DNA from: an uncultured delta proteobacterium
GTDB lineage: Bacteria > Desulfobacterota > Desulfomonilia > Desulfomonilales > Desulfomonilaceae
DNA: 64,000 nt
Reading direction: 5' to 3'
Assembly (NCBI GenBank): GCA_963789265.1
Contig: CAWBKB010000003.1
Span: 352,001 to 416,000 of the forward strand
Under the pieces are notes generated by a model that was not told the DNA's origin, did no database searches, and was given only the letters and a program-made list of their open reading frames with translations. The position numbers were made by a program, and so were the translations under genes. Positions 4,592-52,951 of the stretch are shown here, one piece after another (position 1 is the first letter of the stretch; each line of letters opens with the position of its first letter).

Positions 4592-5200
4592 TGTGTGTCC
4601 TTTGGCCCGTCCCGGCCTGTATGCGCATTTGATTTGCGTTTGTTTAGGCTCCACTCTTGATCGAGGACGATCTTAATGTGAAACCGGGCTCATTCTCATT
4701 ACCGCACTGCCAACCAAGGTCCCACGCCAATCATGTCTCATCTGACCCTATTTCGGCTGGGAGCCCTCGGCCAAGTCTCCTATTAAATAACAGAACTCTC
4801 CTTCAAAAGTGAATATTTCCATGAGTGTGTACCTGTCGGCTCCTTGAAGCCTTGTGGACCGGCTCGCGTCTTCTTCGCCCGAGTCCCGAAGGAGCTCAGT
4901 GACACCAGGGTTTAGGTCGGTTAAGATAGTGGACACGGCCGTGACTACTGTTCCTGGTTCAACCGGGACGGATTGACGAGCCCACGTGTCGTCGGATCCT
5001 GACACGGGCTGGATAGGATTTTGTGAACCGACCGATGCAAAAGGGGCTGAGAGTTTTTCTCGTTATCATTTCGAAAGGAGTGAAATCGTCTATGGGATAA
5101 GTTCAGACCGCTTGGAAAAACGAGGCAGCATTAGCATGGCCCTGCGAAAAGGAGGTCTTCAACGAAATGTCAACATCTAGTAGATGAGGTCGATGGCATC

Positions 5201-7878: not shown

Positions 7879-9301
7879 TCACAACGAAGAGATTTCCAGC
7901 GTCGTAGAAGTCCCGGCGTCCCATCCATCCCATAGAAAGGCGTTTTCCCTCCCGTCGGCAATGAGCCGCATAGCGTACCGGACCTGCTCCTCGTACAATT
8001 CACAAAAAGCCCCGGGTTTGTTCATCCCTCCATTCATTTCATAGGCTTCCGCAGGACATGGGGAACCGCAAAAATGCCGTACCGCGCAAGCAGAACACGG
8101 CGTGATCTCTTCTACTTTCCTGCCGGTGACAGCCCTGAAAGCGTCTGTTTCCAAAACTTCGGATATATTGTCTCGGAAAAGATTCCCTCCCTTGAACCCC
8201 GGTAATCCCACGAACTCACTGCACGGGAACAGATCTCCTCTCGCTCCTACTGCGAAGAAACATCTTCCCCCGCCACATGGCGAAATGTCGCACATCAGAC
8301 GCCGAGCCAGAGGCGCGACTATGCTGATTAGAACATTGGCGAAATTGGCTATCACCAGTTTCCGCCCGGTCCGTTGATAAAGTTCATAGGTTCGATCAAG
8401 GGCCTTGAAATAAGTAGTAGCTAATTCAGCGTCCCTTGGCTTGATGTCTCGAGCCCCTTGTCTCGTGCATCTCACGGGGTTGAGCATCCCCATTGGAACT
8501 TCCATTTCGTGAAGGAAGTTTACGATGTCGGTTAAGGATTCCATGTTCTGGGTCGTGACTGTACAGATCACATTGTAATTCGAGTAGCCCTTCAACCTCT
8601 CAAGCGTGACGACTACCTTCTTGAAGAATCCTTCACCCGCCCAATTCTTCCTCGTCCGGTTTGCTATACTCTCTTCATGACCGTCCAGCGAAAGCCCTAT
8701 CCCTATATTCCGAGAGACGAGGAACTCGATAGACTCGGCGTCTAGGAGCGTACCGTTGGTTCTGGATGCCGAAACTGAAATCATCTATGTATTTCGTGAT
8801 ACCGGCAAAGAGTGCATCGCGGGCAAGCATAGGTTCTGAACCGTGGAAAACCACCTGGGGAAGCCTTCCTTCAGGCAAAGTGGTTCCGAAGTATTCCTTG
8901 AGGATGCCTAGTGCTGTGATAAGTTCTTCCTCAGACATTTGACCGCCGTTTCGGCGCATGTCTTCCGGGATATAGCAATATGAGCAGTTGAGGTTGCATC
9001 GTTCCGTGGGATTGAAATAAACCGCGGAAGGTTTTAGGCCGAACCGAAGCAATTCCATTTCTCGTGTAAAGTCCTCTCGTTTCTTGCCAAACTCCTGCAG
9101 TAGAGAGCTGGACCTGTCAAGGGCTTCGCTGATCTTCTCCTTTTTCAGGAGAGACCAAAACGCGGTGTCGGGATCCACGAGGGCAACGTAGTTCGGGTGT
9201 TCGATGTCGATGAGTTGGATGGTAGGCCCATTGCCTGAGTTGAAATAATGACCGCGGGATGAGGCCAATGTGGCCTCCGCTTTGCTTATGTCCATGAACA
9301 T
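7879..9301 (-). CDS. cbpB: Peptide-modifying radical SAM/SPASM enzyme; apparent 1-nt frameshift near 8760
   Basis: CNLNCSYC radical SAM motif, FHGSEP, SPASM cysteines (CDISPCGGGRC, FPCSEF, CSACAVRHFCGSPCPA); removing one A restores GIQTNGTLL; lies downstream of a CbpA-like peptide and a B12 riboswitch. Confidence 0.85.
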
Positions 9302-9381
9302 GTCTCCTACAAAAAGATTGTTTACTCTTCCTATGGGCGGGGGTGATGGATTGCTCCATACCCCCGCCGGGGCTGAGAGGT

Positions 9382-9471
9382 TTACTTGGCCTTGGCCACC
9401 GTGAGAATGTAGTGAGACAACCCGGTTCCATCGGCCGCGCAGGTCTTGCGATAGGCTATGATGTCCTTCAC
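9382..9471 (-). CDS. cbpA: 29-aa modified-peptide precursor MKDIIAYRKTCAADGTGLSHYILTVAKAK (absent from the ORF track)
   Basis: GTG start with AAGGAGGT RBS; IAYRKxC..GTGLSHYIL is the CbpA-type signature; directly upstream of the radical SAM gene. Confidence 0.88.
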   Translation of the reverse strand: MKDIIAYRKTCAADGTGLSHYILTVAKAK

Positions 9472-9502
9472 TTCTTCATCACCTCCTTTCTTCGCTGCGA
9501 AA

Positions 9503-21965: not shown

Positions 21966-22036
21966 GGGGCCTGCATGGTGCCTTCCCGGACTTTACACCC
22001 AGAGGAAGCGCGGTTCGAATCCGCCAGGCTCCACCA
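21966..22036 (+). ncRNA. Atypical tRNA-like element (8-bp acceptor stem, 4-bp T-stem, G3:U70, no D-stem)
   Basis: GGGGCCTG/CAGGCTCC plus ACCA; GCGG-TTCGAAT-CCGC; central CTTCC/GGAAG helix. Confidence 0.65.
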
Positions 22037-22070
22037 CATCTGAGTATAAGACATACTCAGGGAGAATTCA

Positions 22071-22895
22071 ATGAATAAGTTGGGGTTGGATAAGCAAACG
22101 GCAGTTATAAGTGCGCTGGTTGAAGGTGTCTCCATTCGCTCCATAGAGCGCATGACTGGAGTTCACCGGGACACAATTATGCGATTGATGGTACGCGTAG
22201 GTGACGGTTGTCAACGGCTCATGGACGAGAAGATGCGAAGTCTTCCCTGTAAGCATCTTCAACTTGACGAGATATGGTGTTATGTCGGCAAGAAGCAGCG
22301 CCACGTGAAAGACACCGACGATTCTTCTACGGTTGGGGACTTCTACACCTGGGTTGCTATCGACTCTGCCACGAAGCTGATTCCATCTTACAGGGTCGGG
22401 AAACGGGACGCTGAGACAGGACAGGCTTTTGTTGACGACTTGGCTGACCGCTTGGCTAACCGAGTTCAGATCAGTTCAGATGGTCTCAACATCTATGTGG
22501 ATGCTATTGAAGGGTCCTTTGGAGCAGACGTAGACTATGCCCAAATTGTAAAGTTCTATGAAGCGGAACCGATTGGACCCGGTAGATACTCGCCTCCCAA
22601 GGTCGTGAAGGTCGAAAAGTCGTATATCGCTGGGAATCCCGACTTGAATATTGCCTCTACCTCTTATATCGAAAGACAAAATCTGACGATGCGCATGGCG
22701 ATGCGCCGGTTTACCCGGCTGACCAATGCGTTCAGCAAGAAGGTTGAGAACCTGAAAGCTGCCGTGGCCCTGCATTTCGCCCATTACAACTTTGTGCGGG
22801 TTCACAAGACACTGAGAGTGACACCTGCGATGGAAGCAGGGATATCAAACAGACTGTGGAGCATCCGGGAAATGGTAGAGATGATAGGCGACTGA
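22071..22895 (+). CDS. IS1-family DDE transposase (single ORF, N-terminal HTH)
   Basis: VEGVSIRSIERMTGVHRDTI HTH; QLDEIWCYVGKK, SSDG...Y, STSYIERQNLTMR...RFTRLTNAFSKK. Confidence 0.93.
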   Translation: MNKLGLDKQTAVISALVEGVSIRSIERMTGVHRDTIMRLMVRVGDGCQRLMDEKMRSLPCKHLQLDEIWCYVGKKQRHVKDTDDSSTVGDFYTWVAIDSATKLIPSYRVGKRDAETGQAFVDDLADRLANRVQISSDGLNIYVDAIEGSFGADVDYAQIVKFYEAEPIGPGRYSPPKVVKVEKSYIAGNPDLNIASTSYIERQNLTMRMAMRRFTRLTNAFSKKVENLKAAVALHFAHYNFVRVHKTLRVTPAMEAGISNRLWSIREMVEMIGD

Positions 22896-23489
22896 TTACC
22901 GATTCTTCTTTCTTGAAAGCTTTGTTAGTGCAGCTTTACTTTTACGCTTCGATTTGTCGAACCCTCTGGCGGCCCCGGAAGAGCTGGGCTGACGAATAAT
23001 TTGGGGGCGATTCTGGGGATTTTCAGGGTGTTCAGGATGCGATATGCTGGGGATGTCGATTGTACATGTTCCCGTGAATCCGTCATAGGTGAAATAAGTA
23101 TTTCTCAGTACATCCCTTCCGACTAGCATACCTATACGTCCGACAAGCGGATCGGCCATCTCGCAGACCCATTTGTTCGATATCCAAAAATTACTGCCAT
23201 CGAAGGTGAAATCTACGGAATAAACTTTACAAAGTTCGAGGCTATGGGCTCCCTGTATAGGGATTTTATCCGCCGCCTGCAAACCAAGTTGTGCGGCCAA
23301 ATCTGCTGATATGGCTGTAATTGATGCGCCCGTATCAATAAGCGCTATCGTCTGAATTTCGGTTGATCCTCCGGTAAGCTGAGCAACAGATATAGGGACC
23401 TTGAGAGAGACATTCAACACCGGTCCCATGCCCAACAACTTATTCCAAGGACCCGGGATGATGCAGCGCCTAGGAATAAACTGGGGCAT
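22896..23489 (-). CDS. Retropepsin-like aspartic protease with a basic C-terminal tail
   Basis: ALIDTGASITAI catalytic motif and MLVGRDVL motif. Confidence 0.85.
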   Translation of the reverse strand: MPQFIPRRCIIPGPWNKLLGMGPVLNVSLKVPISVAQLTGGSTEIQTIALIDTGASITAISADLAAQLGLQAADKIPIQGAHSLELCKVYSVDFTFDGSNFWISNKWVCEMADPLVGRIGMLVGRDVLRNTYFTYDGFTGTCTIDIPSISHPEHPENPQNRPQIIRQPSSSGAARGFDKSKRKSKAALTKLSRKKNR

Positions 23490-23733
23490 GAAATAATCCT
23501 AGAGTCAAGTTTACAGATATCTCAATTGGTTCACGCTTTTCCGTGATTTGCCTCACTAGAATCTGAGCTGACTGTGTGGCCTTAACCCCCTGTTCATACG
23601 CCTCAGCGAAAGACTCAAAGAATCCTAAAAGTTTTTGCTGATGAATAACTACCCATTTCCCTTTATGATCGACAAGCCATTCTCGCCAATGCTCGTCAAA
23701 CCATTCAATTTCCTTATCGAGATAGTCGGCCAT
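23470..23733 (-). CDS. Small DUF5678-like protein, coupled to the protease gene
   Basis: E.EWF..H..EW...HKGKWVVI....LLGFF...EAY..G pattern; GGAGG RBS; 20-nt overlap with the protease ORF. Confidence 0.7.
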   Translation of the reverse strand: MADYLDKEIEWFDEHWREWLVDHKGKWVVIHQQKLLGFFESFAEAYEQGVKATQSAQILVRQITEKREPIEISVNLTLGLFHAPVYS

Positions 23734-24283
23734 GATGAAACCTCCGATGATTGATCAGCCGAAACCATTCCTAAGATAAAATTAATAGATTGAACGATTC
23801 AAGTCAAATAGTTTCCAGGTTGTAGCGGAAAGTCGAGAAAAGAAACCCTGAGGTACACGTCCCCTAATTGATACTCCATATCTTATCACGGCAATCCAAA
23901 TTAGGACACTACCCAACTGCCGACTAATGGCATTCCAAAGGAGTTCAAGCCATTTCGCAACTTAGCAGACATGTTTCAGGGTTATTGGGAGATAACTGTG
24001 CATCGGGCAATCAGGCCCGCGGTCCGGGCGGGATCACCGTCCCGCGAGACGCGAGATGCGCGGAAAATGCAGAGAAAAACAATAGCTAGTCCAACGCCAC
24101 GTGAGCCATCGCAGCGTACAGTCAAGCTGGAATTGTCCTCCCTATTGCATGCCGGAATTTGCTATACCCTTTCGCATTAGGTGTGGAGAAAATAGAATTC
24201 TCCGCGGTCTCTGCGTTCTCCGCGGTAAATTACTACGAAATAAGGAGGCAATCCCCCCCGGGGATTACCCAGGGAGAAAAAGG

Positions 24284-25054
24284 ATGAAGAAACGGTGGTT
24301 GCCGGCCGCGATGGCGATCGCTGCTATTGCTCTCCTGGAAACGAGTGTCGTACACGCGGGGCCCCGAGATGCAGGTGGAGAAGAGAAAAGATCCGTGAAT
24401 ACTTTGCGCCTTTACGGCCCCGGAGGTCCGCTTGGTCCCATGAAAGAATGTGCGGACAAATTTTCCGAGAAGACGGGGACAGAGATAAGCATAACCACCG
24501 GCACGCCGCCGCAGTGGATCGAGCAGGCCGAGCAGAACGGTGACCTGATCTTCGAGGGTGCCGAGTACATGCTGAATGACTTCATGCAATCACATCCGGG
24601 CATTGTGGACGAGGCATCCATTACCGGGCTCTACGCGAGAGCTGCGGCAATCCTGGTGAGACATGGCAACCCAAAGCACATAGCAACGCTCGACGATTTG
24701 GCCAAAGCCGGGACCAAGATCATGGTTGTCACCCTGGAAAAGATGGAAGAGGTATACGGCCGCGTCCCCGGAATCCAGTACAACATTGTGAAGCCCGTGT
24801 TGACGGGCCGCGAGGCTGCACGAAATTGGAAGACGATGCCGGAACTCGATGCATGGATCACGTACGAATCTTGGGGCTGCGCTCTGGCAGACGACACAGA
24901 TATAATTCAGATTCCAGAGGAAAACCGAGTCTTACGAATCACCCCTATCGCCATGCTCAACAGATCAAAGAACAAGAAATTGGGCATGGAATTCATCAAA
25001 TTCCTGAGAAGTGGCGAAGTGCACCGGATATTTCAAACATGGGGCTGGAAGTAG
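24284..25054 (+). CDS. AcfC-like periplasmic substrate-binding protein
   Basis: Signal peptide; LYGPGGPLGPMKECA..F, GAEYM, GNPK.I and DAWITYESW motifs. Confidence 0.8.
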   Translation: MKKRWLPAAMAIAAIALLETSVVHAGPRDAGGEEKRSVNTLRLYGPGGPLGPMKECADKFSEKTGTEISITTGTPPQWIEQAEQNGDLIFEGAEYMLNDFMQSHPGIVDEASITGLYARAAAILVRHGNPKHIATLDDLAKAGTKIMVVTLEKMEEVYGRVPGIQYNIVKPVLTGREAARNWKTMPELDAWITYESWGCALADDTDIIQIPEENRVLRITPIAMLNRSKNKKLGMEFIKFLRSGEVHRIFQTWGWK

Positions 25055-25221
25055 AAATTCCGACAATTGTGGAGGGCGGATCTTGAATCCCGTTGGGGCG
25101 CGACGCCAGAACGGAAAATCCGCCTTGTTGTTTGCCCCAACGCGGCGGATTCTCAGGTCCGTATGCCCCAGACTCCCACTAACTTCCCGGAAAGAGGCTT
25201 CTGGGGCCAAACTGCACTCGG

Positions 25222-26443
25222 TCACCGGCTCCTATTCACCTTTTTGAGTTCCTCTGGGGTGCGGCATATCTGCTCACCCTGAATCGACTGGATGTTCGTG
25301 AGCACTGAGAAGCCGTATTTTTCGCTGTACGCCGTCTCGCCCCACACAACGTCTTCCACCACCTGATGGTCTCTCGGCCGCATGACCTTCCACCCTTCCG
25401 GGGTCAGCCAGGCGAGCGGCTCTTTTTCCACTGCCTTAACTATTGCTTCGGGATCTGTGGTCCTGGCACGTTCCACGGCCGCCTTGATAAAGTAAACACC
25501 AGCGTAGGTCTCTTCAGTCATGTAATCCGGATACTCTTTGTATTTCTCGTGGTATTTCTTTACGAAGTCCCGGTTTTCGGCAGAGTCGGGAGTGGTGAAA
25601 AAATACCGGGAGGCCATGTATAGACCAGCCGGAGTCTCTTTGCCGAGTGGGACGAGAGTCTCCAGAGCGGCGCCCACGGGAAACGCGAACTTGATCTTGT
25701 CAAACAGCTTGGCTTCCTTGGCCTGCTTGATGAAGTTCACTGCATCTCGTCCCCACAAGGGGCACCACACTGCATCCGGCTTGGCCTTACGAATCTGCTC
25801 TATTTGCGCGGAGTAGTCCTTGGCCATAAGCTTGGGAAACGTTTCGCCCACTATTTCTACTTCGGGCTTTAGTTCCTTGAGTTTTTCCATGAACAAGCGC
25901 CAGGATTCGTGGCCATAGTTGTAGTCCGGCCCGATGCACATCCATCTCTTGTAAGGCTTTGCGGCCATGTAATAGGCGCCTGACCGGGAATGCATCATTA
26001 TGTTGCTCAGAGGTACTGAAGAGGTAAGGATTGAACTTGGCTCCTGTCACGGCATCTGTGGCTGCTTGCGTCACAATAAGGATCTTCTTGTGCTTTCGAG
26101 CAATTTCCGACAGAGACAGAGCCAGGCCGCTGGAGGTCGGTCCCATGAGGAAGTCCACTTTGTCCTCACCAATGAATTTCTCCGCGAGTTTCGCCGCAAC
26201 ATCCGGTTTCAATTTCGTGTCCCCGAAGAACGCCACCAGCTTCCGGCCGAGCACACCGCCTCCGGCGTTGATCTCTTCCACAGCCATATCTATGGCCCGC
26301 TTGGCATTTATTCCATAACCGCCGAGCGGCCCGGAGCTTATGAACATCGCTCCCAGTTTGATGGGCTTTTCAGCCGCTTGCGAAGCACTGAAGAGTGACA
26401 TCGCCAGGCACAAACCCAAAGAAACAAGCAACAGCCTCTTCAT
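25222..26443 (-). CDS. Branched-chain amino acid-type ABC substrate-binding protein; apparent 1-nt frameshift near 26012
   Basis: AVEEINAGGGVLGR, PDYNYG and R..DHQ motifs; removing one C gives YLFSTLSNIMMHSR and joins the two ORFs. Confidence 0.82.
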
Positions 26444-27288
26444 GATCGACCCCCTGCAAGTCATCATTCGTAAGAGTTGAGGTTGAATGACTCTCCGCCT
26501 AACCAAAGAATCTCCAGGGATTATTATGAAGCGCCGACCGGTTCGGGGTCAACCGGAGCCTCGACCTGGCGCTCGATAGCCCTTCAGACCGCAAAAAGCT
26601 CCGTATCGCCTCCCGCAATACCGACGGACGCAAAACCGTCATCATGTTGAGAGAAAAGCCCGTTGTTTCCCGGCCTTGAAGGTAACTCTCTCCACGGTCA
26701 CATGTCAAACGCAATCTTCATCATAGAATCGCGCTGAGAAACGACATGCGACGAGTCAATGGGCTTCACCGTAGGGACACACCGTTATGGGTTGGAGTCT
26801 AGAGCGGTGAACACCACAAACCGTAACGATCCACAACCGAATGACGCAAAATTGACAGAGCGGTGAGCGAACTGGTCCAGGAAGTGCACCATGATAAAAA
26901 GAGACGCGTGATGGCACAATCCTCGGGGCGACATGAGAGACCTCACCGAAATGGAGGCATCTCACCGCAGAAGGGTGCTTGCGGGGTCCAAGGCCAATGA
27001 AAGACTTGACTCGTTCCTTCTGGATGAGGGTGAGATCGAGGTTTGTAACATCCTAGAACGCGGGCGTGGAGCGGATTATCATTGGTTTGGCGTGGCGCCT
27101 GAAGACAGTGGCGTAAATAGGCTGCGGCATCGGAAACATGAGGTTGACTACGCAGCGACTGTATCTGGAAAGCGCGGATAGGGCATGATGGCGAATACAA
27201 GGCTTATCCAGACGCGTTGGGACTACGGTGGTGCGGTGTTTTCCGAATAGATTCGGGTGCCATTTGACGAACATTGGCACCCCTGCGG

Positions 27289-30200
27289 TCACCGGTCAAA
27301 CAGATGGAACACTTCGTCAATGCCGTAAGCTTGAATTTCAGTCATGCGGTCTATCATGTCTAGGCATCGCCTTTGAAGCGCTGCATTCGTATTTTGGCTG
27401 TAAATTCGGACTACTAATTTTCCAATGATAGTTGCAGCCCATCCTTCGGACCCAGCGGGGCTACTCGCGGCGGTTCCGACCTGCTCCAAAAAAAGTTCAC
27501 ACACTCGGCAGGTTATCTCCGGGAGCCTCGCTGTGGTTTTTTCCAAAGCCTCTATTAACGGCAAGCTGTGGATCTTAAAGGCGGGGCTTTGGACGAATTT
27601 TTCAACAAGAGAGATGTGGTTCCCCAGTTGGTCCCCCTTGAAACCTCCAAAACATCTTGCGGCGATCTTTGCCACATTTTCATCTTTATCACGAAAGAGT
27701 CGTTCCAATGCCTTATGGCAGAAAGAGGATGTGTCGTACCATTTCGCATTGGCTGCGAAGACCTCAGCGGCGGCAGTTCGTTCCACGACAGATCCATTCA
27801 AACACTGGGTTGCTAAGGGACGAGCCGCTGTGATGCGTAGCGACGCCAGACACGATCTGGTGGCACCGACCTTCCGGACGCCCTCAACATCTGAAGCCAG
27901 CATCCATCCTAAGATTGGTTTTAATGAATCAAAATGAGTCATTAGGGCATAATAGAGGAAGGCGTCCGCATGGGAGGTACCCAGAAGCCTATCGTCCGCT
28001 GACACTAGTTCTTTGAAGAGGTGAACAGCAATGTCCCTGTCATGGTTGAGCATTATAATTAGCGGAGCAGTGGCGCATGCACGCACGGCAAGAGATATGT
28101 CGCGGACGATCAACTCAATCGCCGGAAGCAGTAATTGCAAGGCCTGAGGATGATGCTGAAGAATCACAGCCATAGCCTCAGCAGCGCTTCCCCTAACCGA
28201 ATTGAACCCGGCCTCTAAAATTTTTCCCCGAAATATTCGGTCCCACCCGTTTCTTCCTTGTTCCAAAGTTCTTTGTCTGGATCAGGATCTTGAGTCGCAT
28301 ACCAAGCTAAAACATCCAAAAGTTCTTGCGGTAGCAAAAGAGAGGCATTTTCCTTGATTGCCGCAATAATTGGACGACCACAAGGTCGATCTGGCAATTT
28401 GTGGCAACGATCAACAGCCCTGAAAATTAATTTTGCATCCTTCGCGATTCCGGCCAATCCGCTCAAGATCGCGTTGAAATATCGAGGATTGATATCATTG
28501 GGAAGACTCTCGATCAATTTGATATATCGCTGGGGGTCTTTTCTGGTCTGCCCTTCTAACAATCGTGAAAGCTCCTCAGTGCCGCCCACACCATTGTTGA
28601 ACCTCCATGCTCCATCTTCAGCCGCGTACTTTCTGAGAGCCCGCACCCATTGCTCATCGGTCATTTTTCCTGCCGCGGCTGCGGGAATGGGAGGTGCAAG
28701 TCGCACGCTTCTGCCAAATGGTTCAGGGACGTCGGCGTACCGGTCCAAACTTTCTCCGCAATTCTTGAAGCCGTTTCTGTACGGCTGGTGACAATCGCGA
28801 CGCTTCGATGCCTTTCAATAAAACGAATTGCGCGTGGCCATGCTGTCCCTTCCCTCGGGCCGTTTTCTCAAATTGCGGATAATAATTAAGTATGGTGGTC
28901 TCGAGTCGCTCTATTCGATCTCGGCTGCAATAGGGGGTGATGGCCTCCAAGAGTTGTCTTGTGGCCCATTGCGGTTCGCCTACATATCCGGTCCTGAGGC
29001 GAAACGTTTCCTCACACAAATAGTCGCAAGCTTCATCGGCAAATCTGGGACCATTGGCCGCATACGACCGAACTAAGAGAAACTGAACGGTATCAAAACA
29101 TGACTCCTTAAGTATCTCGGCAATCACGGCAAACCGCTCAGGGTAATGGGAAGCGAGATCAGACAAAGCCCTTTCCATCGGTTCTAATAGGGGGGCGTCT
29201 GGGCTGTGATGACCCGAGACATCTCTCAGATAAAAAATGGGGTCTGGCCACGGGGGCCTACCTTCCTTAATAGCGGTGAGTTCGACAACTTTGATGACAA
29301 ATGGTAACAAGTTGTCCACGAATGAAACCGAAGCCAGCTTTGCGCAAGTTAATGCAAATTCAGCCAGGAATTGACTGTGAGGGATATGGGTGACAAAAGG
29401 ATTGTTCTTCCCCGCCTCCAGACTCAAATTTAGCCGACGGTTTAAATAATGATTCATCAGCTCACAGGCCCATTCGGGATGCTGCTCTGGCAAGCCATAG
29501 AAGAAACTCCAAAAATCACTATTCACGCCCCTAGGTCTTTTAAAATCATCGAAAAGCCCCCGATCCAAAAGTTGCAACGAAAGATCTAAAAAATCCCTGC
29601 CAGCACCCATGTCGGCATACTGGACAATGTACATCAGGCGTTGATCCCACTCTTTCGAAATACCTATGTAGCTGCTGAGCAGTTCAGCCACACGGGTCGG
29701 GAAGTACTTCTGAACGCCGGACAAGAGATACACTCCTAGGTTAGCAACACGGTCATCGCTGGAAGCCAGCCAACTGCTAATTATTGCCAGCTTATCCAGC
29801 AATTCGAACCACGGAACAGATCCACGGAGGACATGAAATACGTGTTCCATACCGGACAGTTTTCTCAAGCAATAATTCTCCAAAACCTCCCATTCTTCTT
29901 CCATTGGGTCTTTCAGGCTCTTCAATATGTCAAATATCACCCTCTTTAGATGAAATCGCACTCCGGCATCATTTATTACGGCGCTAAGATCCTTCAGATA
30001 CGAACCTTTGTTAGATCTGTTTCTCTCATAAACTAGAATTTGCCGGATCTGCGAACGTCGGAAGAGATGCTGCTCATCATCCCTTAAGAATTCCAGCAAA
30101 TCGCGCTCTTCAGCATGAAACCGACACGCGTAAGCGTAGTCAAAGAAAGTCTCATGAAAAAAAGCATATTGCCTTCCTTCACGGACGAGAATGTTTTCCG

Positions 30201-31789
30201 AAACCATAAGCTCGGCATCCAGGAGGAACGCGTCAAGTGTCTCTTCAGGCAGCGCTCAGGACACAGTTGCGACTCATATATTTACATAAAGTGTCAATTA
30301 CTTTCGTCCACTCCAGTCGAAAATGATGACACCGACTTATCTCCACCTGCTTTTGACGCCAAAAAATATCGTAAAGATTATTTACTGTGCCAAAACTTGG
30401 CGAGTCTAAAGAAGTCTCCTGAGCCTCAGTAAGTAATTTAAGATGTATCGGTATCGACAGTAGTCTCATCTCGTTCTGTGTCAGAATGTCCGCGCTAATA
30501 TTGGCTGCAGACAGCGTTTCTAGCACCATTTCGTCGGAGAAATTGGTGATTTCTTCAGACCTGAAAGCCAATGAAGTCGAAAGTTGCCGGAGTCGGTGAT
30601 CATTCTCCAAATCGAACTTTCGACAGCCCAGAATTAACCGCACATGGGAATAGAGTTGGGCCTGGGCAATGATTTCATTTACACACTCAAAAAAATCCGG
30701 GTGCCGTCCGGAGGTCAGACTGACTGCATCTAATTGATCAATAATTAGAACACATTTTTTCCCCTTTGCCGTTGACGCTATGACATGGAGAGGTGAACCC
30801 GGCAGGCCTATCTGCTCACCTACTTTCTCGGGCAGCGTCGTAGGCTTCAAGCGATCAACGCGGAAAACGAGATAAGGAACCCCGGCCTCAGCCAAAGCAT
30901 CAACTACTTCGAGAATCGTGGCGCTCTTACCAATACCCGCCTGCCCGGTAACTAAAGCCCCACGGCACGTGTCCTCAAGAACCAGAGCAGAAACCAAATT
31001 CTGTGCCTCAGGACGCTCAATCAACTTCCCGCGAATCGCGCCGGCCCGAAGAGGATTCTGGTACCGGATGTTCGCCGCGCCCAGCAAAGCCAGCACGTGC
31101 TTGTCTTTACCCCAGTCCCGTCTTACGAACCCGTGTTTTTTGAGATGATTCCAAATATCGTGAGCAGACAATTGACGATGGATGCTGTTTATTATAATTT
31201 GGCACAACACATCAACGATAGTTCTCGGATTTCCCTCAACCAATGCCCCTATGCTTCCTCCAAGCGCATTCCTGAGAATTTTTTCATCGATAGTCCGAAA
31301 CTCTGTCCTTTGCAGGGCTTCAAAGCATCCTTGAGGAGATAAGTCCTTCCAGACTTTGCACAGCGTGTCGAAAGCCTTACTATGTTTCTTCGCAGCCAAG
31401 AATTCAGATTGAAAACTCTCGAATGACATGGCGCTGGTTGCTCTGGAAGCCAATTCGTCCATTTGATAAGCAGAATGGCCGGACACGAAAACGCATTTGG
31501 TGTCGGGTTGTTTAAGTTTTTCAGCAAAATTGAGTAGGATTTTGGAGAGGGCATCAATAGTCCAGCGTCCTTCACCCGTAATTTGTCTCTTTACTTGATG
31601 AAATTCTCTGACCTTATCTTTCTTAATGTAGAACTCGACGCCCTTTCCCGCGTCACCAGGCGGCTCCAAGTATATGGATTCGGGCTGCATTCCATCAGAT
31701 CGCTCGTCCATGACGTCGACCAAACAAAAGACTGTCCAGAGCCCCTCATAAGTATTTCCAAGTTTGTCGCTGGCTCCACCTGGCATCAT
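27289..31789 (-). CDS. Large (~1500 aa) nuclease-STAND ATPase-helical repeat protein, Avs-like putative antiphage protein; split by three apparent frameshifts
   Basis: N-terminal GG.SDKLGN.YE..W...E...VEF...HQVKRQ nuclease-like motif; Walker A GQAGIGKS; Walker B LIIDQLD; LLSIPIHL; FFHETFFDY; C-terminal HEAT/ARM-like repeats; single-base fixes at ~30250, ~28745 and ~28228 join four ORFs. Confidence 0.75.
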
Positions 31790-32176
31790 TGGAGTTCCTC
31801 TCTCAAAATTCCTTCAATTCCGGAAGTATATCATGAGGAAGGCCAACCGACTGGCAAAAACGCATCTGGATCCACAGACATCCTCTGACGCGGTTGGAGA
31901 TGCCTGTCCCCGATATTCTAGTCCGCTGGAATACCGGGGTTCCTCGCAATCTACACATCGGCTCGGAGCGGTACCTTTAGCCTCGACAATTCAGTTCTTC
32001 ATCCTCCCATCCGCTCCTGCTATCTGCTCCGAGGTCCTGCCTCTTCAGACACGAGGGATTCGGACACCTTTGCCTAGTCTTTTAATCATAGGCATCACCC
32101 TATGACGCTCTGGGTTTGTGATTCCTGCTTGTGGAGGAGTTAAGGAAGAAGTCACCGGGAAGCGGGCTCACTTGGG

Positions 32177-32610
32177 TCAATGAATCAATGGGTTGCGTAC
32201 ATGCAGACCCGCAAACCTGGCGAAATCACGATCGGCCGTCCACAGCTCGGTCACACCATGCAGCCGGCACAGTGCAGCTACTCGGCAATCGTGTACCTGC
32301 GGCCCAGTTACTTGCCCCGTCTGAAGCAGAGATCGTAGGTGCAGCCAATAGTCTTCCCCTTCAGATAGAAGAACGAGGCTTGGTGATTCCAGCCAGGCCT
32401 CCACCTGGTCAATGGCAATTTCCAGGGCGTAGGAGGGGCGTAGATCCGGGGATGCGTAACGATAGAGAGGAATTCATGAATGCACGGCCAGGGTATCACC
32501 CAAGGCGCGCGGCTTTCTGCCAATACGGCCAGCCGATCATAAGCAAGGACGTGCCAGGACGAATCCTCGCGATGTGCATAAACGAGAATGTTGGGGTCAA
32601 GGGCTATCAC
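32177..32610 (-). CDS. vapC: VapC-family PIN toxin; apparent 1-nt frameshift near 32424
   Basis: MIALDPNILVYAH, EF..IVTHPRI, VHD..VAA and LWTADRDFARF motifs; adding one C gives PTPLEIAIDQVEAWL. Confidence 0.85.
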
Positions 32611-32864
32611 GCGCCTCGTCCTTTATAAATTTCCTCTCGAATCTGTTCCCAGGAAGCCCCGGTGAGGTGAGGTTGCAGGCCCGTGCCTTTGAAAGATGCC
32701 TTTCGGAGCCGAAAATCACCAGGCTTTTTGCGCCTGGAGACAATGAGGCGGAGGCCTTCTTCCACGAGCGCCTTCAGAGTCGTGTGCTCTTTGGCGGCTA
32801 ATTTACGTGCTTCTTCGAGGAGGCTATCGGGTATTTGTATGGTAGTTTTCATACGGCTAGCCAA
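32607..32864 (-). CDS. vapB: VapB-family ribbon-helix-helix antitoxin
   Basis: MKTTIQIPDSLLEEARKLA...TLKALVEEGLR; overlaps the toxin start. Confidence 0.88.
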   Translation of the reverse strand: MASRMKTTIQIPDSLLEEARKLAAKEHTTLKALVEEGLRLIVSRRKKPGDFRLRKASFKGTGLQPHLTGASWEQIREEIYKGRGA

Positions 32865-32964
32865 CCATCATGTGTGGCAAGACGTCAAGATTGTCTCGCC
32901 GTCGGCTTCGTGGGGGCATCCAGGCAAAAAAAGACTTGGCAATTGCCAAGTCCTTGTTTCTTTA

Positions 32965-33040
<76 letters not shown>

Positions 33041-33091
33041 AGCAACTTTTAATTATAAGACCGAGCCTGAACTTATGTCAATCCTTTCGTA

Positions 33092-34000
33092 CTAACCGTT
33101 GAGGTTCAATGTGAAGCCCAGTATCTCGGCCGGGTTGTTTATCCTTAGAAGGCGATACTGTCCTTCCGAATAGATCTCACCTTCCTTGACTCGATGCATC
33201 ACGTCTTCAATATCCGCGGGTGCAATCTTCGGCTTCTCTTTGAGGGCCTCCAGTTCCGGTATCTGTTGGACTGAAAGGAAGACGTAGATTCTGTCTCCGA
33301 CTCGCTTGGCATCATAGACAAACCCCTTCTTCCCGACCGGGATCAAAATCGGCTCGTGAACCTTAACCTGACCTGTGTCCCTCATTAGAGGCGGCGGCGC
33401 CTTCGCCTTTAGCTTTTTGCCCTTCTTGCCCTTCTTGGGGTTCAGCCGAGTCTTGAGTTTTGCCGGAAACAATAATTCGACGGCCTTAGGCCCTTGCCGC
33501 AAGATGTAGCAATAGCCATCCACATTCGGCTCGAACCTTAATTTATATTGGTCCCCTTTCTTGAGCTGCGTGTCGAAGCTCTCCGGCGGACCGAACCCTT
33601 TTTCTCGTTTGCCCTTGACCAGTAACTGATTGCTCATGCCGATTATCGGATCTGGAATGACGATCTTGTCGCCTGCGGCAACTTTCCCGGTCGTTGATAT
33701 ATCATTGTACTTAGCGAGACCCGAGGCTAGATTTGCGTCGCCCATCAGTTTCTGCGCTACGCTCTCTAGAGTGTCCCCTTCCTTGAATGTGTAGGTGCTG
33801 GTGTTGGGATCGTTCCCATCTTTTTTAGGTTTTGGCAGAGCAGCCCATGGAAAGGCCTTGAAATACTCTGCTTTCATGGTGAGGGGGGGCGGGACTTCTT
33901 CTATGGGAGGAAGGGGCGGAGGCTCGTCTTTCTTTTGAAAATAGGCGCATCCCGTAATCAACCCCAGAATGATGAACACTAAAACAATGTGGCGTTTCAT
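33092..34000 (-). CDS. Lipoprotein with a LysM-like domain and a DUF4384-like domain
   Basis: Lipobox ITGC; YTFKEGDTLESVA; LKKGDQYKLRF.PNVDGYCYIL...LLFP. Confidence 0.7.
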   Translation of the reverse strand: MKRHIVLVFIILGLITGCAYFQKKDEPPPLPPIEEVPPPLTMKAEYFKAFPWAALPKPKKDGNDPNTSTYTFKEGDTLESVAQKLMGDANLASGLAKYNDISTTGKVAAGDKIVIPDPIIGMSNQLLVKGKREKGFGPPESFDTQLKKGDQYKLRFEPNVDGYCYILRQGPKAVELLFPAKLKTRLNPKKGKKGKKLKAKAPPPLMRDTGQVKVHEPILIPVGKKGFVYDAKRVGDRIYVFLSVQQIPELEALKEKPKIAPADIEDVMHRVKEGEIYSEGQYRLLRINNPAEILGFTLNLNG

Positions 34001-47461: not shown

Positions 47462-47864
47462 GGCGACCTCGCCTTTTTTTATCTAAAAAATACAACCAAT
47501 TCACCCTAAATGTCAAGTCAATTCAAGGTTACAACTATGTCTCTTTCGCAAGGAAATCTATGGCGGAGGAACGTTATCCTTGATAGAATGTCTTTGAGTT
47601 TAATCGTAAGTTTTCAAGATCCGGATAACAAGCCGCTGAAATTCGTCCGCCGGAAAGAATCATCTTCCTGCCATTTCGATCGGCCGGTGTTGATATCCAG
47701 AATTTTTGATAGACTATCTAAGAAGCTTCTTGCCTCACACATGAGCGATAGCTAAAAAGTGGCTTCATGTTAGCAGGTTAAGCAACCGTAACCAAGGTAA
47801 AAACTTGACTTGGTCTTCGTTATAGATTAAGAAAATACTTGATTCGAAGAAAGGAGAAATCGCT

Positions 47865-48611
47865 ATGCTCGAGGCCTTTGCCACGGCATTGCCCCAACAC
47901 ACGTTTCATCAACAAGGCATGTTCGAAATCGTTATGGGCGCCGGATGGGTAGTGAAAGGTGTGATGCTCGTACTCCTCTTGTTTTCCATAATATGCTGGG
48001 GGATCATTTTAACCAAAGCAATCACGTTGTCCCACGCTCGCAAGGATACTCAACTCTTTTTCGACGCATTTCGTGAATCGCGCAAATTCTCCCTTTTATA
48101 CGCAGAGGCTAAACAATTCACGTTCAGCCCTCTTGCCCATGTTTTCAAAGCGGGTTACGCCGAACTAAATCGGTTGTCTCGGATACAGCAGGCCGCTCAG
48201 AGTTCCGCGGATTCCACGCAAGAGCCGGAGTACGAACGAACGGGCATGGATAATGTGACGCGTTCGCTCCAGCAGGCTGTAACCGCAGAGAGGAGTCGTC
48301 TCGAACGAGGCGTGAACTTTCTGGCCACCACGGGCTCATCTGCTCCTTTCATCGGTCTATTCGGGACTGTTTGGGGAATCATGGAGTCCTTTCGCCGGAT
48401 AGGTGTCATGAAGAGTGCATCGCTGGCAGTAGTGGCACCGGGAATAGCCGAGGCATTGATCGCTACCGCTGCAGGTTTGGCAGCGGCAATTCCTGCGGTT
48501 ATTTTTTACAACTATTTTCTGAGCCGCATCAACACGATCTCCGGCGAAATGGATAACTTTTCTTCGGAACTGATAAATATAATTGAGCGGATTTACTGGG
48601 CGAGAAAATAA
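47865..48611 (+). CDS. tolQ: TolQ
   Basis: FLATTGSSAPFIGLFGTVWGIM and VAPGIAEALIATAAGL motifs. Confidence 0.95.
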   Translation: MLEAFATALPQHTFHQQGMFEIVMGAGWVVKGVMLVLLLFSIICWGIILTKAITLSHARKDTQLFFDAFRESRKFSLLYAEAKQFTFSPLAHVFKAGYAELNRLSRIQQAAQSSADSTQEPEYERTGMDNVTRSLQQAVTAERSRLERGVNFLATTGSSAPFIGLFGTVWGIMESFRRIGVMKSASLAVVAPGIAEALIATAAGLAAAIPAVIFYNYFLSRINTISGEMDNFSSELINIIERIYWARK

Positions 48612-48662
48612 CCGTGCGCATCTGCCCGCTCCACTTCTGCGCTTAGGTGCGCTAAGGAGTAA

Positions 48663-49100
48663 TTGATGGCTTTTAGCATGAGTTCACAGAGAAGAACAGC
48701 AATGGCGGAGATCAACGTCACTCCGCTCGTTGACGTTATGCTGGTCCTGCTCATCATCTTCATGGTTACTGCCCCTATGATGCAAGAAGGTGTTTCAGTG
48801 GAACTGCCTCAGGCGAAGGGGGCACCCATTAGTAAAGAGCAGCAGGCGAAAGATGTCGTTATATCTGTTTCCGGTCAAGGGAATATTTTTGTCAACGATC
48901 AGGCAGTGCAGGAAGACAAACTCCCGCAGAAGATTGTTGATGTGACCAAAGACCAGCCAGCTAGAGAAGTATATCTTCGTGCAGACAAAACTGTACCTTA
49001 TGGTACGGTGGTCCGCATTATGGGAGCGCTAAAGAGCGCAGGAATAGCTAACCTCGGGATGATAACGACCCCCCAAGAAGAATCTAAGCCTGTAAAATGA
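48663..49100 (+). CDS. tolR: TolR
   Basis: EINVTPLVDVMLVLLIIFMVTAP and LRADK.VPYG.VV motifs. Confidence 0.95.
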   Translation: MMAFSMSSQRRTAMAEINVTPLVDVMLVLLIIFMVTAPMMQEGVSVELPQAKGAPISKEQQAKDVVISVSGQGNIFVNDQAVQEDKLPQKIVDVTKDQPAREVYLRADKTVPYGTVVRIMGALKSAGIANLGMITTPQEESKPVK

Positions 49101-49966
49101 CAGTCATTTATGCCAGATCCGCCGCTGCGGCCTCGCCGTGGGGACTCCTGCTCTCGGTGTGTCTTCACGGCTTGGCATTTCTGGCGGTAATCATCCTGGC
49201 ATTTCCCCTCTCTAAAGCGAACAAACCGGTGGATGAAGTCATCAGCCATGTGAAGCTTGTGGAGTTCAACACACGTCCACCGGTTGCCGAGCAAATCCAG
49301 GCCGGCCCGGCCCAGGCTACAAACGTTCACTCGCCCGAAGTCCTTACCCAGGCGGAACAGCATGAAAAGAGTCCGGAGAAATCACGCGCAACTGTAAAAG
49401 CCAGGACCATAGGCTCTCAGACTCGAAATGTCATCGCTATGAAGAAACGCAAAAGGCCTCTCCGCCGGGTTGAAGCCGCCAAAGAGCCCGACAAGAAGAA
49501 GTCAGAAGTCAAAAGCGCCAAGACCAAAGAGAGCTCACAGTCTTTCCTGGAAAAGCGTCTGGCAGCCATTCGTCGGGAAGTTGACAGCAAAAAAGCCGAA
49601 GCTGGACCCTCACAATTCTCCCAACCTCCCGGGCTGCCCGGCGAGAAAAACAGCGGCTCCTCGATTGACGCAAAGGCTGTTCGCTGGTTCAATAGTGTCC
49701 GGACCACCATAAATTCCCATTGGTCCATTCTTGTAGACGATCGGCAACTGGAAAGAGTGACCATTATCGGGGTAAGAATAGCCGATAACGGTAGCCTCAT
49801 GGACGCCTCCGTAGATGAAAGCTCCGGCGACCGTGTATTTGACCGGTCTGCAATGAGAGCCGTCTTTCAGGCGGCCCCATTTCCGCCTGTTCCCTTAGAA
49901 GTCAAGGAGAAGATCAGCAAAGCAGGCGGGCTCGCCTTCCGATTCACACCCAAAGGCATGCAATGA
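49097..49966 (+). CDS. tolA: TolA/TonB family protein
   Basis: SVCLH TM anchor; C-terminal SSGDRVFDRSAMRAV..AAPFP; position in the tol operon. Confidence 0.85.
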   Translation: MTVIYARSAAAASPWGLLLSVCLHGLAFLAVIILAFPLSKANKPVDEVISHVKLVEFNTRPPVAEQIQAGPAQATNVHSPEVLTQAEQHEKSPEKSRATVKARTIGSQTRNVIAMKKRKRPLRRVEAAKEPDKKKSEVKSAKTKESSQSFLEKRLAAIRREVDSKKAEAGPSQFSQPPGLPGEKNSGSSIDAKAVRWFNSVRTTINSHWSILVDDRQLERVTIIGVRIADNGSLMDASVDESSGDRVFDRSAMRAVFQAAPFPPVPLEVKEKISKAGGLAFRFTPKGMQ

Positions 49967-51369
49967 AGCGTAAGTCTCCCAAGGGCAATTGTCGCCCAGG
50001 ATTGTCCAGGGACTCAACCCAGAATGTTTCAAAGGCCATATCGGAGAGCAGCGTAAGCCCCGGCAGAAAAATCGGCAAACTTACCATCGGGGGCCGTCTG
50101 AAGACGCTGTTTTGCCTTATTTCGCTCGTGTCAATGGTCGCCTGGCCGGTTCAATCTCATTGCAAACTCTTTCTGGATCTGGAAAATCCGAATTCGGCAA
50201 AGATGCCCATAGCAGTACCGGACTTCGTTGGCCAAGGACCGGCCTCCCTCAATGGGCACGACCTGGCTAGAATAATCAAAAACGATCTGTACCTTACAGG
50301 ACTTTTCGACATTGTAGAGGGTTTACCATCGAGTTCGCATAATCTCACGGATCCCCCGGATTTTGATAGCTGGTCCCAAATCGGCGCCCAAGCGCTGATA
50401 CTGGGAAGCTTCCAAGTGAGAGGCGATGAATTGGTCGTAGAGGCCCAGCTCTATGACGTCGCCCTAAAGAGACTTGAGTTGGGCAAACGCTACACCGGTA
50501 GAAAGAACTATTATCGCACCATGATCCACAAATTCGGGGATCGCGTTATGGAAAAACTTACAAACGTTCCTGGCTGCTTCACCACTCAAATCGCTTTCGT
50601 GGGGGCCGGCCGATCCCGAGAAATTTTCAGCATGGATTTCGACGGCCATAACTTGTGGCAGATTACTCGAACGGGGAGCATAAATCTCTCCCCTGAATGG
50701 TCGCCGACCGGGCGAGGTATGATATTCACTTCTTATATGAATCGTAAGCCTGACCTATGGGGAGTGGATTTAGCCACTCTGAAGCCGTACGTAATATCCG
50801 CTCGGCCTGGGCTCAACGCTTCTGGGCGGTACTCATACGATAGTAAGTTCATTGCATTATCTATGAGTTTTAAAGGAACACCTAAGATATTTATCATAAC
50901 ACCGCAAGGACAAATTATAAAAGAGTTGACGTCTGGCAGAGGAAATGATATCTCTCCCACATGGTCGCCCGATGGATCGGCCATCGCCTATGTTTCGGAT
51001 CAAGTAGGGACTCCACAGATCTATATTATTCCGGTGAATGGCGGTGAACCGAGACGCCTTACCCTGCAAGGCAACTACAATACTGATCCGAAGTGGTCGC
51101 CACGAGGAGATTTATTGGCTTTCACCGCCCGTATCAAGGGACGGTTTCAGATATGCACCATAAGAACGGATGGCACCGACTTGCGGGTGCTGACCGGAGC
51201 CGGGTCAAATCAAGCGCCGACCTGGTCGCCCGACGGCAGGATGATAGCTTTTCAATCCAACAGGGATGGAAGAAAGCTGATCTACGTCATGGACGCCCGT
51301 GGAGAGATCCAGGTCCCGGTCTCACCCATCACGGGGAGGGCGCCCGCTTGGTCTCGGACAGGTCGATAA
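49963..51369 (+). CDS. tolB: TolB beta-propeller protein
   Basis: PIAVPDF; repeated P.WSPDG motifs; true start may be downstream. Confidence 0.93.
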   Translation: MKRKSPKGNCRPGLSRDSTQNVSKAISESSVSPGRKIGKLTIGGRLKTLFCLISLVSMVAWPVQSHCKLFLDLENPNSAKMPIAVPDFVGQGPASLNGHDLARIIKNDLYLTGLFDIVEGLPSSSHNLTDPPDFDSWSQIGAQALILGSFQVRGDELVVEAQLYDVALKRLELGKRYTGRKNYYRTMIHKFGDRVMEKLTNVPGCFTTQIAFVGAGRSREIFSMDFDGHNLWQITRTGSINLSPEWSPTGRGMIFTSYMNRKPDLWGVDLATLKPYVISARPGLNASGRYSYDSKFIALSMSFKGTPKIFIITPQGQIIKELTSGRGNDISPTWSPDGSAIAYVSDQVGTPQIYIIPVNGGEPRRLTLQGNYNTDPKWSPRGDLLAFTARIKGRFQICTIRTDGTDLRVLTGAGSNQAPTWSPDGRMIAFQSNRDGRKLIYVMDARGEIQVPVSPITGRAPAWSRTGR

Positions 51370-51406
51370 TGAGGGGAGGGATGCGGTTAGAAAGGAGAAC
51401 ACATTC

Positions 51407-51907
51407 ATGTCATCTCGCTGCCTGATAAAGGGAATGACCGCAGCATTCGTTCTCCTCTTTCTCGCATCGGGCTGTGCACCAAGGATCGTCAGGCCCAATC
51501 CCGGGCCGGCACCCGGCTTTACTGGCCCGCAGGCTAGTGGACCAATGATGGAACAGGACGTGCAAATGGTGCAAACAACCCTCAAGCCCATATATTTTGA
51601 TTACGACAAATACATGCTTTCTCCGGAAGCGGAAGCCAACCTTCAGTATGACGCCGAAATTCTCAAGAGGGCCCCCCAGGTGTCAGTGGTCGCTGAAGGG
51701 AACTGCGACGAGCGCGGAACGGCCGAGTACAATCTGGCTCTGGGCGACCGTCGTGCCAGATCCGCGGTGGAATATCTCGCAACTCTCGGAATTGCCCCCA
51801 ATCGATTGTCAACTGTTTCTTACGGGTCGGAACTGCCTGTCGATCCGGGTCACAACGAAGAGGCCTGGGCGAAGAATCGGCGCGTCTATCTTCGGGTCTC
51901 CAGATAG
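51407..51907 (+). CDS. pal: Peptidoglycan-associated lipoprotein
   Basis: Lipobox ASGC; IYFDYD, EGNCDERGTAEYNLALG.RRA and AWAKNRR motifs. Confidence 0.95.
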   Translation: MSSRCLIKGMTAAFVLLFLASGCAPRIVRPNPGPAPGFTGPQASGPMMEQDVQMVQTTLKPIYFDYDKYMLSPEAEANLQYDAEILKRAPQVSVVAEGNCDERGTAEYNLALGDRRARSAVEYLATLGIAPNRLSTVSYGSELPVDPGHNEEAWAKNRRVYLRVSR

Positions 51908-52051
51908 TGTGTAGTTAGAATGCGGCTATCGGACATGCCTAATACGGATTCGCTTTCAAGCCGGTCACACTGCATTTCTGATGGGACAGTCCCGCCCGGG
52001 CGGGATTGTCTGTCGCCATACCCAAGAATGCGGTCCCGCGTGGAACGCGGG

Positions 52052-52951
52052 ATGCCCCACTTTATCCTGTGTGCCGTTGTCACTTGCCTGAAGGCACACT
52101 GGCACAATCCCTTGGGAAGTGGACGTATCGCCCTTTTCGGAGCGCTCGTTGTCTCGCTGATCTCTCTTTCAGGGTGCCTGACCAGGCCCGGCGGACCTAC
52201 CATGCCATATATCAGACCGGCCCAATCCGTGCCTGCCGTTGATGCTATTCCCCTTCGGCTCTCTTCCCGGTTGCAAGATATGGAAGTTGAAATGCAGCGA
52301 CTCAAGGAGATGATAGAGCGCCTCCAGGCGGCAGGGGGAAACCAAAACTCAATCAAGAATCTTCAGGAAAGGGTCAGCATCATCGAGCGACAACTTGGAA
52401 TAGAGCCTCCCAGGGACGCGGCCGCTACAAGTGCTCCAGCGCCTCCTCCACCTACAAATCCCCCCACCCAGGGGCAGCCGCGAACAACGGGACGCGTTCC
52501 GGCCAACCAGCAAATCCCGACTCCTCCATCGACCCAACCCGTCCCTGTTGAGATCAGCAACCCCCCGCTTCCCCCGGACGAGAAGGCCTACAAAGACGCC
52601 TACACCATGTTCAAGGGGAACTCTTTCGATAGTGCGGTGCTCCAATTCGAGGATTTTCTGAAGAAGTATCCCAAAAGCCAGTTTTGTGCTGATGCAGTGT
52701 ATTGGATCGGAGAGACCCGTTTCGCGCAGGGCCGGTTTGACGAAGCAGTTCTTCAGTTCGATCGGGTGATTAAAAATTTTCCGGGTTCCAAAAAGGAACT
52801 CAGCGCCTTGCTCAGGCAAGGTGAAGCTTTCGAAAAGTTGGGAGACGCTCGTTCAGCAAGGATTATTTTTCGAAAACTTATCAGTGACCATCCTCACACG
52901 GCGCAAGCCCGTATAGCCGGCAGTAGGCTCAAATCGCTGCCTGCGGAATAG
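52052..52951 (+). CDS. cpoB: Tol-pal system protein CpoB/YbgF
   Basis: Coiled coil, Pro-rich linker, TPRs (AVYWIGE); follows pal; start uncertain. Confidence 0.88.
   Translation: MPHFILCAVVTCLKAHWHNPLGSGRIALFGALVVSLISLSGCLTRPGGPTMPYIRPAQSVPAVDAIPLRLSSRLQDMEVEMQRLKEMIERLQAAGGNQNSIKNLQERVSIIERQLGIEPPRDAAATSAPAPPPPTNPPTQGQPRTTGRVPANQQIPTPPSTQPVPVEISNPPLPPDEKAYKDAYTMFKGNSFDSAVLQFEDFLKKYPKSQFCADAVYWIGETRFAQGRFDEAVLQFDRVIKNFPGSKKELSALLRQGEAFEKLGDARSARIIFRKLISDHPHTAQARIAGSRLKSLPAE

Follow-up and report, generated by a model that had tools for sequence, protein, structure and literature searches.

Avs (AVAST) proteins combine an effector, a STAND (signal transduction ATPases with numerous domains) nucleoside triphosphatase (NTPase) and a sensor, and among those described, the closest to the locus treated here is SeAvs7 from Salmonella enterica, for which an apo structure (Protein Data Bank (PDB) entry 9N00) and two further structures (9N01 and 9YIX) are available (Lee et al., Nature 2026, PMC13581612). 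According to that study, SeAvs7 joins a Cap4 nuclease to a STAND NTPase and a bilobed sensor built of repeats. This sensor is sharply bent in the structures and binds the major capsid protein of tailed phages, which has the HK97 fold; in one clade (192 of 1,757 Avs7 representatives) the host protein EF-Tu assists in the binding. Capsid binding relieves an ADP-bound auto-inhibition, ATP drives the formation of an asymmetric tetramer, and the Cap4 domains cut double-stranded DNA (PMC13581612). Here we describe a related gene in a 64,000-nucleotide stretch of DNA (the window) from an uncultured delta proteobacterium of the Desulfomonilaceae (Desulfobacterota; GenBank assembly GCA_963789265.1, contig CAWBKB010000003.1, forward-strand positions 352,001 to 416,000). 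The gene lies on the minus strand at window positions 27289–31789 and encodes 1,499 amino acids (aa) after reading through three single-base errors. Based on sequence comparison, we propose that it specifies a divergent member of the Avs7 type, that is, a single-gene anti-phage receptor, and we put the probability of this assignment at about 0.78.

Avs7 is defined by its sensor; since at least 20 effector types occur across the family, a Cap4 effector is not strictly defining, and the published sets comprise 3,272 verified Avs7 proteins and 9,097 sensor-bearing proteins (PMC13581612). Several SeAvs7 residues have assigned roles in the same source: Asp358 is the Walker B residue, Arg395 contacts the γ-phosphate of ATP, His545 in the winged helix contacts the β-phosphate of ADP, and Q60A-K62A serves as nuclease-dead control, as given in a source-data column header (PMC13581612).

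The relationship to SeAvs7 was evaluated with two profiles. The first, an alignment of 43 family sequences searched against all PDB sequences, returned one strong match, 9n00_A (1,523 residues, named ‘AAA family ATPase’), with E 1.7e-36. The second, A2, made from 38 full-length open reading frames (ORFs) at genome loci that span many phyla, matched the same chain with E 2e-52 in two colinear stretches: A2 57–641 aligned with 9n00_A 58–640 (independent E-value (i-E) 1.5e-29), reaching about 80 residues into the sensor; and A2 958–1373 aligned with SeAvs7 943–1373 (i-E 1.4e-18), with an envelope that extends to residue 1522 of 1523. The next PDB match to A2 was an AP-3 HEAT protein at E 4e-4, and with the family profile Avs3, Avs4 and all other STAND structures in the PDB stayed above E 1e-3. 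Family members of 1,499–1,511 aa and SeAvs7 of 1,523 aa match at almost identical coordinates, and the residues with assigned roles correspond: Q65/K67 – Q60/K62; K288 – Walker A Lys; D351 – Asp358; R390 – Arg395; and the invariant His of an FFHE motif – His545. The family combines (i) a sensor part homologous to that of SeAvs7, at approximately residues 950–1499, (ii) the NTPase residues, (iii) a Cap4 effector and (iv) the absence of an obligatory partner gene, each of them a feature of Avs7.

Residues 1–250 (31040–31789, minus strand) are predicted to fold as a Cap4-type PD-(D/E)xK nuclease. The AlphaFold2 model of this region has a mean pLDDT (predicted local distance difference test) of 87.8, and Foldseek against the PDB returned 22 matches at E <= 1e-3, those listed all being Cap4-type nuclease chains of defence systems. 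These include LmuA (9nxx, 5.7e-6), the Cap4 domain of Avs3 (8dgc_A, 9.7e-6), HamA (8zue) and Cap4 (6wam, 6vm5 and 7yia), and the matches to Cap4, LmuA, HamA and DUF4297 have template-modelling (TM) scores of 0.45–0.61 with E-values from 5.7e-6 to 7e-4. The LmuA model of PADLOC likewise matches residues 53–219 (E 6.5e-4). In the 43-sequence alignment E15, E42, E52-F53, H64-Q65 and K67 are invariant, and the QxK active-site codons Q65-V66-K67 (31589–31597, minus strand) align with Q60-C61-K62 of SeAvs7.

The STAND NTPase, composed of a nucleotide-binding domain, a helical domain and a winged helix, occupies approximately residues 251–560 (30110–31039, minus strand), as delimited by Pfam and PADLOC matches and the SeAvs7 alignment. 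Walker A is GIGKS at residues 285–289 (K288; 30923–30946) and Walker B is IIDQLD at 349–354 (D351); the same module contains R390 and, in the winged helix, the FFHE motif with its His. Pfam matches to AAA_16, AAA_22, NACHT and nSTAND_NTPase5 over roughly residues 265–420 are all weak, at or below the cut-offs; the first of the four ORFs into which the gene is broken scores 18.5 bits against nSTAND_NTPase5 (PF25199), under the gathering cut-off of 34 bits. Many homologues carry a precomputed PF25199 match, which places the NTPase near that family. The best PADLOC model is PDC-M54A, with E 2.4e-13 for the first ORF and 1.3e-23 and 4.5e-24 for full-length homologues; the alignment is confined to the NTPase (about residues 265–560, profile positions about 307–660) plus one weak C-terminal stretch and does not cover the full model.

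The remainder of the protein, approximately residues 561–1499 (27292–30109, minus strand), is assigned to a helical-repeat sensor of HEAT/TPR-like type on the strength of a structure model, weak HEAT matches and the homology to SeAvs7. The HEAT matches, from Pfam, fall in the last ORF, and the C-terminal two thirds are otherwise without a family. The model of the second ORF (approximately residues 514–1016; pLDDT 90.3) is an all-helical solenoid behind a short beta element. An ESM Atlas search with the middle part found only unnamed ‘hypothetical protein’ clusters, and a wide fold search matched Avs4 weakly, with a Z-score of 7.2, on the winged-helix plus repeat part.

A first-pass annotation, made from the letters of the sequence and a list of its ORFs, had recognized much of this architecture. 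The PD-(D/E)xK-like motif that it saw at the N-terminus consists of residues invariant in 43 sequences and can now be placed in the Cap4 subtype by fold; its Walker A and B motifs are real and conserved; the long helical-repeat C-terminus agrees with the HEAT matches and the solenoid model; and the Avs-type layout of effector, STAND and sensor, which it had put forward by analogy, is borne out by the nuclease fold, the NTPase and the HEAT-like repeats. A nuclease fold, the lack of which was to count against it, was found, and the PADLOC run that it had recommended gave PDC-M54A as best model (on the NTPase only), a weak Avs2 match and LmuA on the nuclease. Its suggestion of an unclassified Avs subtype with an unknown trigger is not supported, given homology along the length of the protein to the capsid-sensing SeAvs7; PDC-M54A, moreover, is a distant relative among the candidate models that PADLOC already contains.

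The comparison with known systems is closest for Avs7, where the likeness comprises a single polypeptide of about 1,500 aa, profile homology in all three modules and retention of QxK, Walker A/B, the Arg and the His, as well as a gene that stands alone, is patchily distributed and has defence genes as neighbours in other genomes. The differences are that the similarity is remote, that the middle of the sensor is unalignable by HMMER and that the present family is environmental, whereas SeAvs7 is enterobacterial. Avs1–4 (SeAvs3, 8DGC; EcAvs4, 8DGF) share the tripartite effector–STAND–sensor logic, and the SeAvs3 Cap4 domain is among the best N-terminal fold matches, but the PADLOC models Avs2 and Avs4 match the NTPase core only and weakly (E 1.5e-4 to 1e-6), the Avs2 match covering about 120 residues instead of the full length; their reported triggers are terminase or portal (PMC13581612). 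Cap4, LmuA, HamA and DUF4297, the nucleases of CBASS, Lamassu, Hachiman and HerA-DUF4297, have the same N-terminal domain fold; in these systems, however, a cyclic-nucleotide sensor or partner ATPases exert control, whereas the window protein has a fused STAND switch. PDC-M54A, in which we take PDC to mean ‘phage defence candidate’, resembles the receptor in profile length (1,621–1,657 positions) but aligns mainly over the NTPase, and a literature search for the term ‘PDC-M54’ found nothing. NCBIfam offers no model of the family: the gene and two full-length homologues gave nothing beyond a sub-threshold IteA match.

In the assembly the coding region is divided into four tandem minus-strand ORFs, at 30245–31789 (514 aa), 28723–30207 (494 aa), 28215–28748 (177 aa) and 27289–28266 (325 aa). 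In tblastn, all five full-length homologues used (1,501–1,516 aa) are colinear over the four ORFs, which fall in frames -1, -2, -3 and -2; the matches begin at residue 3 and continue to the C-terminal residue, and identity is even (42–48%) over the four pieces. With the first ORF as query and only longer proteins considered, 483 proteins were found at E <= 1e-3 (8,000 candidates scored); among the matches listed, 106 of 120 are 1,426–1,568 aa long, and identity to the query is 43–49%. Of 80 related genome loci, 56 contain an ORF that is 1,400 aa or longer. Because homologues run colinearly across the four ORFs, we read them as a single gene with three frame changes and about 1,500 codons, from a start ATG at 31787–31789 to a stop codon at 27289–27291. 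The first-pass annotation had joined the same four ORFs into one gene and would have counted a lack of full-length homologues across the junctions as a refutation; all three junctions are crossed by homologues. Apart from the three frame changes, no in-frame stops or other signs of decay were found in the gene.

The frame changes were compared with Logan contigs of X1 and X2, two soil-metagenome runs that belong to the same study; 18 pieces were placed on positions 27000–32100. All 18 are at least 99% alike to this stretch, and they differ from the assembly by a single substitution, at position 30126, and by exactly three indels, one per ORF junction. At junction 1 (30251), which falls inside the STAND NTPase module, the assembly has one surplus base, omitted in an X1 contig (29967–30343); at junction 2 (28740) there is a surplus base in a CC pair, omitted in contigs of X1 as well as X2; and at junction 3 (28225–28226) a run of C is one base too short in the assembly, with C4 against C5 in an X1 contig. 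The context is thus homopolymeric at one junction only. With the three contig indels applied, a single ORF of 1,499 codons from the ATG results, and residues 2–1499 of the read-through protein align to residues 3–1504 of homologue P0003 with 46% identity, homologues P0006 and P0009 giving similar alignments. A third run, X3, contained no contig matching 27000–32100, from which we draw no conclusion. Two of the three junction peptides proposed in the first-pass annotation (LSAPEETLDAF... and EYFGGKILEAGF...) match the contig-supported reading exactly; for the middle one, RKFDRYADVPEP, the contig-supported reading differs at the two junction residues.

The same type of break recurs elsewhere in the genome, which is assembled in 9 contigs (6.06 Mb). 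The rpoB gene is split over three frames (TIGR02013 positions 2–345, 339–1108 and 1076–1238; C3:808388–812571) and secA over two open frames (C1:2200296–2202627), while rpoC and uvrA are unbroken. Within the window, a Peripla_BP_6 binding-protein gene (profile 1–120 and 123–334; 25222–26506, minus strand) and a radical SAM/SPASM enzyme gene (7879–9475, minus strand) are also split. A class I/II aminotransferase truncated to profile positions 3–250 of 361 (5135–5998, plus strand) and a gene set of the xanthine-dehydrogenase family whose ORFs overlap (775–3536, plus strand) are probably split by the same errors. Since rpoB and secA are essential and cannot be pseudogenes, we read such breaks as errors of the assembly consensus; the three breaks in the receptor gene are very probably of this kind, and the natural gene is almost certainly unbroken. 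Programmed frameshifting was rejected as an explanation, since the three sites have no slippery motif in common and the contigs show plain indels. The expectation that automated tools would miss the receptor through fragmentation is correct for the annotation of the present assembly, but the fragmentation is an artefact of that assembly and not a property of the organism.

The family is found in Cyanobacteria, Chloroflexota, Acidobacteriota, Armatimonadota, Myxococcota, Actinomycetota, Gammaproteobacteria, Binatia, Latescibacterota and two Methanothrix-type archaea, where its members are annotated as ‘ATP-binding protein’ or ‘hypothetical’; close homologues include WP_194058686.1, MBD2014993.1, HBE18739.1 and MCY4090690.1. 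Among 40 genomes of relatives, only two contain a match, in the first an open frame of 1,508 aa with 45% identity and in the second a partial match at 30%. Such patchiness among kin is typical of a defence gene that moves horizontally. No neighbour family is common to more than 6 of the 56 loci that hold a full-length gene. Seven of the eight most recurrent neighbour families match defence models; the defence neighbours include HmaA, HmaB, methylase, specificity and restriction subunits of type I restriction-modification systems, a NsnB/AriA-like ATPase and a NERD-UvrD helicase.

The archaeal homologues lie on contigs of Methanothrix-type metagenome-assembled genomes (MAGs; loci L029 and L030), and one methanogen homologue has an open frame of 1,511 aa that extends as far as the end of its contig, its N-terminal domain being 41% identical. 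Some genomes have two paralogues, among them a Gammaproteobacteria MAG, in which the copies are almost adjacent, about 12 kb apart on one chromosome (L058 and L070), and a Dehalococcoidia MAG (L016 and L036).

Several results limit or weigh against the assignment to Avs7 or the corrected gene on which it is built. With the first ORF alone as query, phmmer found nothing in the PDB at E <= 0.01, and SeAvs7 is visible to profiles only; HMMER moreover leaves the middle of the sensor (about residues 640–950, some 300 residues) unaligned to SeAvs7. 9N00 is in neither of the two fold libraries used, the Foldseek one ending in April 2026; apart from Avs4, the wide fold search with the middle part yielded generic HEAT/ARM solenoids with Z <= 10.9, which is under the stated noise level for repeats, and nothing follows from it for the fold of the sensor. 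Six accessions of close homologues were absent from seven supplement files, which lack the large tables, so that this says nothing on membership. PADLOC applied to 30 other ORFs of the window gave no convincing defence model, only two weak repeat-type matches of one TPR protein. Finally, the contigs that support the frame corrections have a depth of just 2.6–3.3 and may stem from the same sample as the assembly, in which case they are independent at most of the assembly method and not of the population.

Limits such as the remoteness of the similarity and the unaligned sensor middle lead us to file the receptor as a divergent Avs7 member, with a sister family as the main rival. Such a family would be related to but distinct from Avs7, with the same Cap4–STAND–repeat layout and an ancestor shared with Avs7, and its sensor would recognize another phage protein or sense capsid without EF-Tu. 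Similarity detected by profiles only, with about 300 sensor residues unaligned, would fit this reading, but the match to SeAvs7 spans both ends of the sensor at near-identical coordinates and total length, and other solved Avs proteins never reach E 1e-3. At least 90 structurally distinct sensor families have been reported, EF-Tu being used in only one Avs7 clade, and the SeAvs7 sensor is termed TPR, whereas Pfam reads the repeats of the present family as HEAT; on the other hand, the sensors of Avs7 and Dsr1, though distant, both recognize capsid protein (PMC13581612). Overall, we regard a separate family as unlikely.

Two further alternatives were considered. If the three frameshifts were real in the DNA of the organism, the receptor would be a dead pseudogene, as might be suspected from their presence in the deposited assembly and from the frequent loss or decay of defence genes; the frameshift-free contigs, being of low depth, could then come from a co-occurring strain. 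Those contigs, however, differ from the assembly by one substitution, and their sole three indels coincide with the three junctions; essential rpoB and secA carry the same type of break in this assembly; and the gene has neither an in-frame stop nor other decay, with identity even at 42–48% across its pieces, which makes a genuine pseudogene very improbable. A STAND NTPase with a role outside defence, for example as a regulator or a HEAT-repeat scaffold, seems to us barely credible. Defence and non-defence STAND clades are interspersed (PMC13581612), and the gene has no surrounding defence island in this genome, but a Cap4-type nuclease effector with an intact active-site motif, homology to the experimentally validated defence protein SeAvs7 and the recurrence of defence genes as neighbours elsewhere all argue for a defence function.

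The receptor gene sits between the Peripla_BP_6 binding-protein gene and a vapB-vapC toxin-antitoxin pair beside a tRNA-Ala(GGC) gene (32965–33040, minus strand). The vapBC pair (32177–32864, minus strand; VapB_antitoxin 2.1e-8; TIGR00028) lies upstream and is not part of the system; vapC itself is split by a frame error, with TIGR00028 positions 2–62 and 71–141 in two frames (32177–32610, minus strand). The receptor stretch has a G+C content of 0.47 versus 0.50–0.55 around it. A search of 22000–33100 for a direct repeat of the tRNA-Ala end returned only short, chance-level repeats. The vapBC pair and the tRNA gene beside the receptor may be what is left of a small island, but they have no flanking repeat in this search. 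Over 26400–33100, neither promoters nor terminators were in excess over shuffled sequences (7 versus 5.4 +/- 2.4 and 9 versus 8.0 +/- 3.3, respectively), and no promoter was assigned.

Further features were observed elsewhere in the window. At 3725–4672 (minus strand) a gene for a barnase-type secreted ribonuclease (Pfam Ribonuclease, 1.9e-23) is followed by one for its inhibitor barstar (5.1e-29). At 22050–23498, where the G+C content (0.45–0.50) is the lowest of the window, an ORF with a weak match to an IS1-type transposase (5.3e-7) adjoins an ORF for a retropepsin-like aspartyl protease. A complete-looking Tol-Pal cluster at 47826–52951 (plus strand), comprising TolQ/ExbB, TolR/ExbD, a TolA/TonB-like protein, TolB, Pal/OmpA and a YbgF-like TPR protein, points to a diderm host.

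We infer the mechanism of the window protein by homology to SeAvs7, from which the capsid trigger, EF-Tu dependence, oligomeric state and phenotype would all be carried over. By this analogy, the resting receptor would be an ADP-bound, auto-inhibited monomer. Once a phage infects the cell, one of its freshly synthesized proteins, most probably the major capsid protein with its HK97 fold, would be clamped by the sensor; ADP would be exchanged for ATP, and the receptor would oligomerize via its Cap4 domains. The assembled nuclease would then cut double-stranded DNA, and phage replication would stop. Tentatively, and with rather more doubt than conviction, we also consider that the environmental clade may be a separate branch of Avs7 in which the N-terminal sensor lobe, the one that does not align to SeAvs7, has been re-tuned, maybe to act free of EF-Tu or on a ligand other than the HK97-fold capsid protein; if so, its archaeal members might bring tailed viruses of archaea within the reach of capsid pattern recognition.

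For the genome at hand, the present assembly appears to contain roughly one frame-breaking indel per few kilobases, rpoB and secA included, and because such indels are frequent even in these genes, the ‘fragmented’ or ‘hidden’ genes of this genome are best treated as artefacts until reads say otherwise. For the family, the assignment to Avs7 would mean that soil and aquatic bacteria widely carry capsid-sensing receptors of a divergent clade, which also occurs in a methanogen. The clade would not amount to a new kind of biology, but it would be a reasonable source of new sensor specificities.

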